A stretch of DNA of 64,000 nucleotides from Amphiscolops sp. MND2022 (taxonomy: Eukaryota): contig OZ076409.1 in assembly GCA_964187785.1 (NCBI GenBank), positions 78,370,001 to 78,434,000 of the forward strand. The letters are read 5' to 3'. This document shows, in pieces, positions 37,601-40,600 of the stretch; within the stretch, counting starts at the first letter, position 1, and each line of letters opens with the position of its first letter. The notes below the pieces were generated by a model. The model did not search any database, was not told where the DNA came from, and saw only the letters and a list, made by a program, of their open reading frames with translations. Position numbers and translations under genes: made by a program.

Positions 37601-40600
37601 GTAACTGGGTTAGTTGGATTAATTTTATGTATTTTAAAAAGTTCTCTATTCCAATTTGTTGTATAACCTTTACTATATAAATTGCGTTTATCAGGAACTC
37701 TTACATAGTCTCCCACTTGGAATTTGGGTTGTTTCGGTTTATTAACAAAAGTAGGTGGATCTATTGGTTGATTATTAGCTTCAAAAGGTGTCATTTTTGT
37801 TGTACCATGAACACGATTATTATACTTATCCAAAGCACTGTTAATATGATTCAGCCAACAAGCTTTTCCTTCAATATACATTGGTTTTTTTATTAGATCT
37901 ACTAAGGTTCTATTGATACGTTCAACAAAAACAGCTTTTAAATCTGAATTAGTTGAATAAATTTGAATTTCATTTTGTTTAAGAAAATCCAAAAATGTTT
38001 TATTATAAAATTCTTTACCTCCATCCGACCATATTTTATCAGGTTGTCTTTTTGCTTTTTCAATAAGATTTTTTAATGCATTTGTTGTACTTTTTCCAGA
38101 CTTATCTTTAAGAGGAATCGCCCATGCATATTTGGTATGATTGTCAATTATTGTGAAAATAAACTTGTAGTTTTTATTATATTTTGATAAGCTAGACCTG
38201 TCTATCAGGTCGATACTCCAACATTCATCTTTATAATGGGGAATTATTTTAATGCGATCAAACTTCTTGATTACAGGAGAGAATATTTCTTTAGCAATTT
38301 CTTTCTTTTCATTCATTTATTTCTTAATAAATGAATAAATTATATATAGGTTTATTATGTGTAATTTTTATTATAGTTTTATATATTTATTGGTATTATA
38401 TTAGGCCCAGACATTATGAAAAATTATACCAAAAACTAAAACAATTCAAGGGATTTAAAAAATCCCATCTAACTGATCAACCAGAAGAAGTATCTCAATC
38501 TAAACCAATTACTAACACAAATTGCCATATGTTAATTTATGGTACTAGTGGGTCAGGTAAAACTAGTTTCTTGAAATATTATTCAAATCAAACTAAAACT
38601 AATTTTATAGTATTCGGTAGAGATGAGACTGAGTTTAAAGATAATTATATACCTTTGTTACAGTTAGAAAAAATAGAAATTGAATCACTTGCTAATAAAA
38701 CGGTAATACTGGATGATGCAGGTGCATATAAAAACCTTAAAACAAAAGTAGAAGACTTATTCCGGTTTGGAAGAGATCATAATATACAAGTTATTTATCT
38801 TGCACATTATGCAAAGGATGTTCTACCTGTTGTAAGAGAGAATTGTTTTAAGATCTTTATAACAATAAATAATCCAGATAGTTTCTTTGAAACCATAATA
38901 CAAACTTATTCAATTAAAGAATTAAGGTGGAAACAATATCGTAGTCAGTTAGAATTTGGTGTAATTGAATTTGATACTAGATCACAAAAGTATAAAATAC
39001 TCAATCAAAAGTATCAACTAATCTACGATACAACTAAACATAAATGGAGTCCTGAGGATTATGTAAAATATGAAAGTTATTTCTTTACAGGTGAAGAATA
39101 TAATAGATTGAAAATATTTTTAGAAGAGATGTCAGATCAAACAATTGAAATAACACCTTTTAATGTAGCTTATTATTATGTATATTATTGTAAACAAACT
39201 AAAATAAAAGTGAATGAATCTAAAATAGACAACTACGTTGAACGCATGCAACAACCATTAATTTCAGATCAACTTAAAGATGAATTTAAGAAAATTATAA
39301 TTGATCAAGCAATCAGGTTTAGTAAAAGTAATTAAATATACTTAAATATAATTAAATAATATATAAATTATTAAAAATAAAGGATCTGATTTCTTAGTAA
39401 TTTTCTTAGTAAAATCACTAAACAAATTCACTAAGAACATTTTTTGTCACTAAGCAAATAAGTTACACTTAAAACATCATGCTCTTAGTGAACTTGCTTA
39501 GTGCTCTTAGTGATTTTTTTACTAAATAAATGAAGTGTATAATTTGTGGAAAAAGTAATGAAAAATCTGTCTGCTCCGATTGTGAGAATTAAAAAAGATG
39601 TAAAGTGTGTAATATACTGAAAACAGATTTTTACAAATATAAAAATGGTAAATTGTATAGTACATGTATAGAATGTTTCAATAAAAAAGTAAAATGTGAA
39701 TTCTGTAATAAAGAATTCAATAAAACTTATTTATCAAAACATTTAAAAAGATGTATTAAACTATTAGAAGATGTATATTATTTAAATAATAATCAAATTG
39801 ACGATGATAATGAAAATCAAATTGATGATGATAATAATCAAATTGATAATAATCAAATTGATGATGATAAAGAAAATCAAATTGATGATGATAATGAAAA
39901 TCATAATGATCAAATAGATGATAATAATAATCAAATTGATAATAATTGTAATAGGACATTGATAGTTGGCCCATCATTTTGTGGTAAGACCCATTTGTTA
40001 TTAAACAAATTACAATTAATTCGCTTAGATAATCCTGAACAAAAGATATGTATCATTACGAGGAGTCCGGAACAATACAATAAAATTGAAATAGAAGATG
40101 TTTCAGTGGAAGAAGATCTAGAAGACAAAAGTATTCAAGATTTTCAAAATTGTTGTGTTGTATTTGATGATATGTTGGACACTTCACAGAAATTAATAGA
40201 TCCATTTTTTACTAGGGGAAGACATAATGATTTAGATGTTTATTATTTATCACAGTCATATTTTGATTTACCTAAAAGAACAATTAGAAACAATAGTAAT
40301 ATTATAATTTTATTTCAACGAACATTGAAAGATGTTGAACATATATACAGAGACATAGCAGGTTTTGATATGTCTTATGATGAATTCAAAAGTTTGTGCA
40401 GAGAAGCATGGCGGTATAAGTATAATTATTTATTAATAAATAGGTTAGAAGATAAAAATGGGAGTAGGTATAAAATATGTAATGAATCTAATCCGGAGTA
40501 TAAAACCTTTAATCCACAAACTGATCCTTTTTAGTAAAAGCTGAAAGAATGTTTTGATGTTGATTTGTTGTAATGCATTGGTACTGTAATAATTTATCTG

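Follow-up and report, generated by a model that had tools for sequence, protein, structure and literature searches.

A Polinton/Maverick element with an apparently additional, membrane-anchored A32-type ATPase of separate origin

What are two P-loop ATPase genes doing side by side in one Polinton/Maverick element? The genes in question lie in a 64-kb stretch of DNA that was analysed whole and is called the window below. They had been predicted to be adjacent and on the same strand, which was borne out: both are on the + strand and both have Walker A, Walker B and GR motifs. Published accounts of Polinton/Maverick elements, as far as their accessible text goes, list one packaging ATPase (PMC8502044, 10.1101/2023.08.22.554363, PMC11161782). 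The literature searched, in the parts accessible to us, included these three and PMC11131425, PMC11703096, PMC8715426, PMC11296320, PMC8328091, PMC6356626, 10.1101/2022.05.25.493380, 10.1101/2025.04.19.649669 and 10.64898/2026.06.19.733378, with Repbase records and subscription papers outside its scope; within it we came across neither a two-ATPase Polinton nor a membrane-anchored A32-type ATPase encoded by a Polinton. The window element, in which an intact membrane-anchored A32-type ATPase of separate origin comes on top of the usual one, is apparently an undescribed variant.

The pair belongs to a 14.2-kb Polinton/Maverick element that spans positions 29578-43804 of the window and forms an AT-rich island. 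The element has terminal inverted repeats and a target-site duplication, together with an rve integrase and a double-jelly-roll capsid protein identified by Pfam, as expected of a Polinton/Maverick. The target-site duplication, CGGAA, is 5 bp long; shifting the reading of one end by a base would make it 6 bp. The features are as follows.

29578..29750, no strand: left terminal inverted repeat, 173 nt, 97.7%, beginning AAGTAGT, with CGGAA immediately before it
30999..34757, + strand: presumably a protein-primed-type PolB (label from motifs) with an endonuclease-VII-like insertion; PF02945 below its cut-off, no Pfam PolB match, in-frame stop at 32847-32849
34899..36127, - strand: double-jelly-roll capsid protein (PF21738, E 4e-22), frame broken at ~35900
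36189..36710, - strand: membrane protein with a hydrophobic core, also found in single-ATPase relatives
36742..37446, - strand: 234-aa ORF with no assigned function (ORF list, Pfam)
37465..38316, - strand: rve integrase (PF00665, E 6e-13), head-to-head with ATPase 1 across a gap of 14 bp
38331..39335, + strand: ATPase 1, an open 334-aa frame
39385..39530, no strand: imperfect inverted repeat in the gap that separates the ATPase genes; CACTAAG occurs in it five times
39530..40534, + strand: ATPase 2, with a GRH/SQ core and an in-frame stop at 39590-39592
40509..41450, - strand: conserved Polinton ORF region, fragmented in the window copy
41540..41941, - strand: small basic Cys-containing ORF of 133 aa, with weak likeness to an ORF of L023
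41951..43009, - strand: probable minor capsid protein, E 1e-17 to L019, label inferred, no Pfam match
43203..43613, - strand: ORF taken, from a motif, to be a probable cysteine protease; no Pfam protease match
43634..43804, no strand: right terminal inverted repeat, with CGGAA immediately after it

The pPolB, minor capsid and protease ORFs match ORFs of IMG/VR loci; Pfam gives them no label, and their names come from motifs that we recognised. An endonuclease-VII/HNH-like insertion has been described for some pPolB2 proteins in the accessible text of 10.1101/2023.08.22.554363. The PolB N-terminus is Cys/His-rich and bears a faint likeness to the ATPase 2 N-terminus (E 0.19), and the long stretch from the left inverted repeat to PolB (29750-30999) contains three related repeats of 87 nt and further repeats of 30 nt, without a clear gene. 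The window copy is decayed, with stops or frame breaks in PolB (32847), the capsid gene (~35900), ATPase 2 (39590) and the 40509-41450 region; despite this decay its inverted repeats are still 97.7% alike. Outside the element, a TRAF/MATH-domain gene (62089-63129) lies between two 99% identical inverted copies of ~800 bp (60854-64000) and points to an animal host; tandem arrays of the host DNA occupy 4217-8184 (~368-bp period), 44231-44420 (~22-bp period) and 45124-45335 (27-bp repeats).

Nine of the ten element genes start in a TAAATG context, as against ~3.7% of the other ATGs of the element (p ~1e-12; 30999-43613); ATPase 1 is one of the nine, along with eight of the nine other genes checked. 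TAAATG resembles the poxvirus late-promoter core. Five IMG/VR relatives have mostly other A-rich start contexts. The segment between the two ATPase genes (39385-39530) is an imperfect hairpin of CACTAAG repeats (z -4.28; 0 of 200 shuffles folded equally well) and holds five of the nine CACTAAG copies in the window.

Its sequence relationships mark ATPase 2 as the genome-packaging ATPase that the element inherited. Its motifs are GPSFCGKT, VVFDD, GRH and SQ, its Cys-rich N-terminus is zinc-finger-like, and it contains an Asp/Asn-rich repeat linker (39786-39959). The gene starts at 39530, is interrupted by the in-frame stop at 39590-39592 within the Cys-rich part, which the original prediction overlooked, and is open from there to 40534. 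A search with ATPase 2 gave 1540 matches among 2268 candidates; the motifs are retained in 116-119 of the 119 relatives listed, most of which have 11-12 Cys before Walker A, and the core is 87-99% identical among copies. ATPase 2 had been called canonical, and in its motifs, GRH and SQ among them, it is; the description does not extend to its long branch or to its lack of a Pox_A32 match in Pfam, where none of three ATPase 2 sequences matched and both sister-element ATPases (L022 and L023) did.

The related elements carry a single ATPase. A scan for PolB motifs gave 12 IMG/VR loci, among which L012 and L014 encode the same protein and L010, L012, L016, L017 and L020 are partial stretches. Each of the ten loci that show any A32-like ATPase within the stretch read shows one, and the stretches of L013 and L021 lack one. 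The window element has capsid, probable penton, protease and other ORFs in common with L011 and L019, whose contigs, read whole, encode one ATPase each. In L023 the ATPase and integrase genes are divergent with ~500 bp between them, so ATPase 1 sits where L023 has no second ATPase. The 16,929-bp contig of L019/L023 looks like an entire Polinton-like genome, in which the ends are inverted and one ATPase is encoded.

Phylogenetic trees, which were unrooted and drew on thin reference sampling, placed the two ATPases apart. A tree of 47 rows put ATPase 2 in one group with the L011, L019 and P0409 single ATPases (99/90); in it the ATPase 1 family did not fall on one side of a branch, P0368 lying outside (60% of bootstrap trees). 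In a tree of 24 rows, from which the long or unstable P0408, P0410, P0411, P0413, P0368, L005, L009 and L015 and redundant rows had been dropped, a long 100/100 branch separated the ATPase 1 family from the rest, and ATPase 2 joined L011/L019 (97/86) on a long branch of its own. ATPase 1 did not branch with the single ATPases of related Polintons. An AU test on the 24 rows, run after the 47-row tree had been seen, went against a clade of ATPases 1 and 2 (p=0.008), and a recent tandem duplication of the ATPase genes was rejected on this result. Direct comparison by BLASTP gave no significant match between the two proteins (E 0.38), and HHalign aligned their profiles at 92%, E 5e-7, over 106 columns with 24% identity. 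ATPase 1 is on this evidence a second ATPase of separate ancestry. That it stems from an old lineage and entered the element at a point flanked by the integrase and ATPase 2 is, taken together with the membrane-motor reading set out below, not quite an even chance in our judgement.

ATPase 1 has Walker A at residues 71-78, Walker B at 124-129, GRD at 147-149 and AH at 158-159. The N-terminal hydrophobic helix (residues 6-24, Kyte-Doolittle mean 2.4) is predicted to be a membrane helix (~6-24) and is followed by a stalk helix to residue 37, a flexible linker (46-59), an FtsK/HerA core (~62-233) and a helical C-terminal domain (~241-331). The protein carries ~100 extra C-terminal residues: in the sister copy P0009, 206 residues follow Walker B, versus 109-120 in ATPase 2 and six single ATPases. 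The window copy retains all six key residues (K77, D128, D129, R148, H159 and R169).

Relatives of ATPase 1 separated what belongs to the family from what belongs to this copy. The search gave 345 matches among 1184 candidates, and the best 120, all from ENA contigs, were analysed. These are 62-94% identical to ATPase 1, which answers the concern raised in the original prediction that the protein might not be conserved in sister copies. Among these best 120 of 345, the column of D149 has H in 118, Q in one and Y in one; because H holds that column in 118 of 120 close relatives, GRD is private to the window copy. AH, in contrast, is a family trait in the same set, with A158 in 118 and H159 in all 120. 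The GRD, AH, N-terminal helix and C-terminal extension that had been read from ATPase 1 are thus all present, but the first of them does not characterise the family. K77, D128, D129, R148, H159 and R169 are kept jointly in 108 of the best 120, and the arginine finger R148 is found in 117 of these 120 and, among deep relatives, in 22 of 22. Hydrophobic residues occupy the helix columns in each of the 103 close relatives that cover them, the remaining 17 of the 120 starting within or downstream of the helix. Within the best 120 there are two subfamilies, 44 members at >=75% identity and 76 at lower identity; most of these 76 have a longer N-terminal extension, and no partner ATPase turned up for them.

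Distant members were sought by a profile search of 1.84 billion representatives (299 matches, of which the best 150 were listed) and by a second search (21 matches among 8000 scored candidates). After short fragments were excluded, 22 long distant members were chosen, which are 24-52% identical to ATPase 1 and bring the range of the family to 24-94%. A strong N-terminal hydrophobic helix is present in 19 of the 22; of the three exceptions, P0305 and P0405 are apparently N-terminally short and P0368 is weak. The original prediction of membrane tethering is therefore supported at the level of anatomy, by 103 of 103 covering close relatives and 19 of 22 distant ones. No such helix was found in 113 ATPase 2 relatives, unlike the ATPase 1 family. 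In a deep set of 22 representatives (20 distant and two close), G71, G76, K77, D128, D129, R148, H159 and R169 are invariant in 22 of 22, and positions of the C-terminal domain are likewise conserved. The distant members come from short metagenome contigs and, in bivalves, from chromosomes; the named ones are two genes of the bivalve Mactra antiquata (KAL4240361.1 and KAL4224295.1) on chromosome-scale contigs. On these alignments, ATPase 1 belongs to a separate deep family, recognisable by a His sensor, a C-terminal domain and, at the N-terminus, a predicted membrane helix.

An AF2 model of ATPase 1 built from 70 sequences reached a pLDDT of 81.6, and its residues 50-233 were used for structural comparison. 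The best match was the packaging NTPase B204 of STIV2 (Z 15.6, rmsd 2.7, 164 aligned residues), followed by VirB4 and HerA (Z 14.3) and then by TcpA, Zot, FtsK and TrwB (Z 10-13), with EccC and EssC also among the structural neighbours. Foldseek gave B204 and viral A32-like proteins as top matches. In Pfam the window ATPase 1 scored above the cut-off of Pox_A32, as did 64 of the 70 aligned family members; the Pfam families of FtsK/SpoIIIE, coupling proteins and gp1/Zot matched weakly in 9, 8 and 5 of the 70. A sequence search of solved structures with ATPase 1 gave short P-loop matches only. Because the structural matches, the Foldseek tops and Pox_A32 agree, ATPase 1 is placed by its modelled fold in the FtsK/HerA A32 class. 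Membership of another P-loop class had been named as what would tell against the prediction; the fold is FtsK/HerA, and automatic Atlas names such as STAND NTPase were rejected.

The sensor of the FtsK/HerA class is defined as a polar residue, mostly glutamine, in the accessible text of PMC11703096. In ATPase 1 it is polar but His, in 120 of the best 120 close relatives and 22 of 22 deep ones. A His sensor is also present in the IMG/VR viral ATPases L005-L009 and L015, outside the ATPase 1 family, with L005, L009 and L015 forming a 100/100 branch of their own, and it has been reported for adenovirus IVa2 (10.1101/2022.05.25.493380, accessible part); the notion that it is unique to ATPase 1 was rejected on these cases.

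The adjacency of ATPase 1 and ATPase 2 was seen in the window element only. As a proxy for a shared contig, which says nothing on adjacency, we used equal contig size: 12 sizes are common to the two top-120 lists, among them 21,746 and 39,971 bp. A size equal to that of a listed ATPase 2 relative was found for 11 of the 44 ATPase 1 relatives at >=75% identity versus 1 of the 76 farther ones (Fisher p 6e-5), the median contig sizes of the two groups being alike (248 and 243 kb). Across 15 presumed same-contig pairs the identity matrices correlated at rho 0.25 (p 0.14), or at rho 0.42 (p 0.04) after post hoc removal of one pair. Scans of viral contigs, metagenome contigs and prokaryote genomes for ATPase 1 found no true relative, L001-L004 being rejected as unrelated or as matches at the level of Walker A, and a phage tblastn with ATPase 1 gave no match. 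ATPase 1 is perhaps kept in many copies of the window's Polinton family, a claim that we hold jointly with the membrane-motor reading and, like it, with slightly less than even confidence.

That reading is tentative and stands just under the halfway mark in our judgement: ATPase 1 would have been acquired and would work, tethered to a membrane, as an active FtsK-type motor next to the normal packaging ATPase, by analogy with known motors. FtsK, coupling proteins and inovirus gp1 form rings. ATPase 1 would likewise form its own ATP-driven ring, anchored by the helix so that the motor faces the cytoplasm or nucleoplasm; the charges beside the helix fit this orientation in the near family only. 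There it would act on element DNA or nucleoprotein, moving it or holding it at a membrane while particles assemble or leave. DNA is not singled out as the substrate by the fold, which the protein movers VirB4 and EccC-type ATPases have as well. PRD1 packages through a membrane-spanning vertex (PMC6356626, accessible part), so such a membrane step exists in this virus lineage, and one chain of ATPase 1 would combine the motor with the membrane tether that PRD1 gets from that vertex. We doubt, without dismissing it, a more specific version in which this is a two-motor lineage of animal Polintons: the ordinary ATPase would fill the capsid and the membrane-anchored A32-type ATPase, alone or in a mixed ring, would drive viral DNA through a membrane, so that it enters a membrane-containing particle or leaves the nucleus or the cell. 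If true, this would be an FtsK- or conjugation-like step new for eukaryotic DNA viruses.

Other explanations take the same observations differently. Some other virus lineage, as yet uncharted, could have had ATPase 1 as its only packaging ATPase, recombination having captured it; here it would be either redundant or replacing ATPase 2. We consider this unlikely. The deep family on short metagenome contigs and bivalve chromosomes would suit a capture, as would the long branch of ATPase 2 and its lack of a Pox_A32 match, and in the accessible text of 10.64898/2026.06.19.733378 octocoral, hydrozoan and bivalve ATPases are nearer Aquintoviruses than Maverick groups and gene exchange is frequent. 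Yet the ATPase 2 motifs and core are conserved across its listed relatives and copies, as given above, and the capsid, probable penton and protease match single-ATPase relatives whose ATPase groups with ATPase 2. A heteromeric ring, anchored in the membrane through ATPase 1 and equipped with a zinc-finger module by ATPase 2, seems to us improbable. The genes are adjacent, on the same strand and in the same start context, their N-termini are complementary, and both keep the arginine finger, which acts on the neighbouring subunit (PMC11703096, accessible part); heterotrimers of divergent capsid paralogues have been modelled in PLVs (10.64898/2026.06.19.733378, likewise). Against such a ring, the two ATPases come from far-apart lineages, one ATPase suffices in close sister elements, and the co-variation of the two proteins is weak. 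A complex prediction of both motor domains in which no alignments were used scored 0.29 (mark, 0.34) and counts neither for nor against the ring.

We give still less weight to ATPase 1 as an active membrane ATPase without a role in DNA movement, serving for example membrane remodelling or virion-protein export. VirB4, EccC and EssC are among its structural neighbours and the element encodes another membrane protein (36189-36710), but viral packaging ATPases are the best structural and feature matches, and a membrane protein of that type is also found in single-ATPase relatives. We know of no helper virus here, and we regard it as very improbable that ATPase 1 is a decoy, poisoning the packaging ATPase of a helper virus or a competitor. 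The TAAATG context at nine of ten gene starts could mean use of helper transcription machinery, and phage satellites that jam helper packaging are described in the literature accessible to us; however, the catalytic residues are invariant over 24-94% identity, GRD is private to the window copy, and the His sensor also occurs in L005-L009 and L015. The original prediction allowed for a decoy; a catalytically dead one is not supported, its main cue, GRD, being a one-copy substitution. GRD as a sign of inactivation was rejected on the 118 of 120 close relatives with H, and loss of catalytic residues on the key residues invariant in 22 of 22 and the six kept in 108 of 120.

The reading of ATPase 1 as a membrane-tethered motor bears on how these elements assemble. 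A second, membrane-anchored motor gene hints at a membrane step in element assembly or cell exit, and ATPase 1 gives a handle on such a step in the assembly and cell-to-cell movement of animal Polintons. A32-like ATPases are used as a one-per-genome marker for these viruses in the accessible text of 10.64898/2026.06.19.733378; Pfam labels ATPase 1 as Pox_A32 but misses the inherited ATPase 2, so such elements could be misplaced in trees. The octocoral, hydrozoan and bivalve ATPases that the same text places outside the Maverick groups may be members of the ATPase 1 family, and the supplements of that work may bear on novelty.

Among known systems, the nearest to ATPase 2 is the Polinton/Maverick (adintovirus) packaging ATPase: its sequence and the gene set of the element match, and the trees place it beside the L011, L019 and P0409 single ATPases. 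The window element is unlike these in having two ATPases of separate ancestry, the additional one with a membrane helix. Adenovirus IVa2 resembles ATPase 1 in its His sensor (10.1101/2022.05.25.493380, accessible part). IVa2 was absent from the listed fold matches of ATPase 1; it has been termed an ABC-type ATPase (PMC11161782, accessible part), and its placement is disputed. Two A32-like or P-loop entries each were found by BFVD matches in Medusavirus stheno, Catovirus, Klosneuvirus, Gaeavirus and Tupanvirus, and more than one A32-like gene per genome therefore has precedent in giant viruses. Giant-virus genomes are far larger than a Polinton.

STIV/STIV2 B204, PRD1 P9 and poxvirus A32 share with ATPase 1 the core fold, Walker A and B, the arginine finger and a polar sensor. 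Viral FtsK/HerA packaging ATPases consist largely of the motor domain alone (PMC11703096, accessible part), and ATPase 1 differs from B204, P9 and A32 in its own predicted membrane helix, in His for Gln and in its C-terminal domain. The combination of a membrane anchor with an FtsK-type motor is that of FtsK/SpoIIIE, TrwB/TcpA and inovirus gp1/Zot, the N-terminal membrane domain of FtsK and that of gp1 being described in the same source. Unlike the FtsK, TrwB and gp1 motors, ATPase 1 has one short anchor and is encoded by a eukaryotic element.
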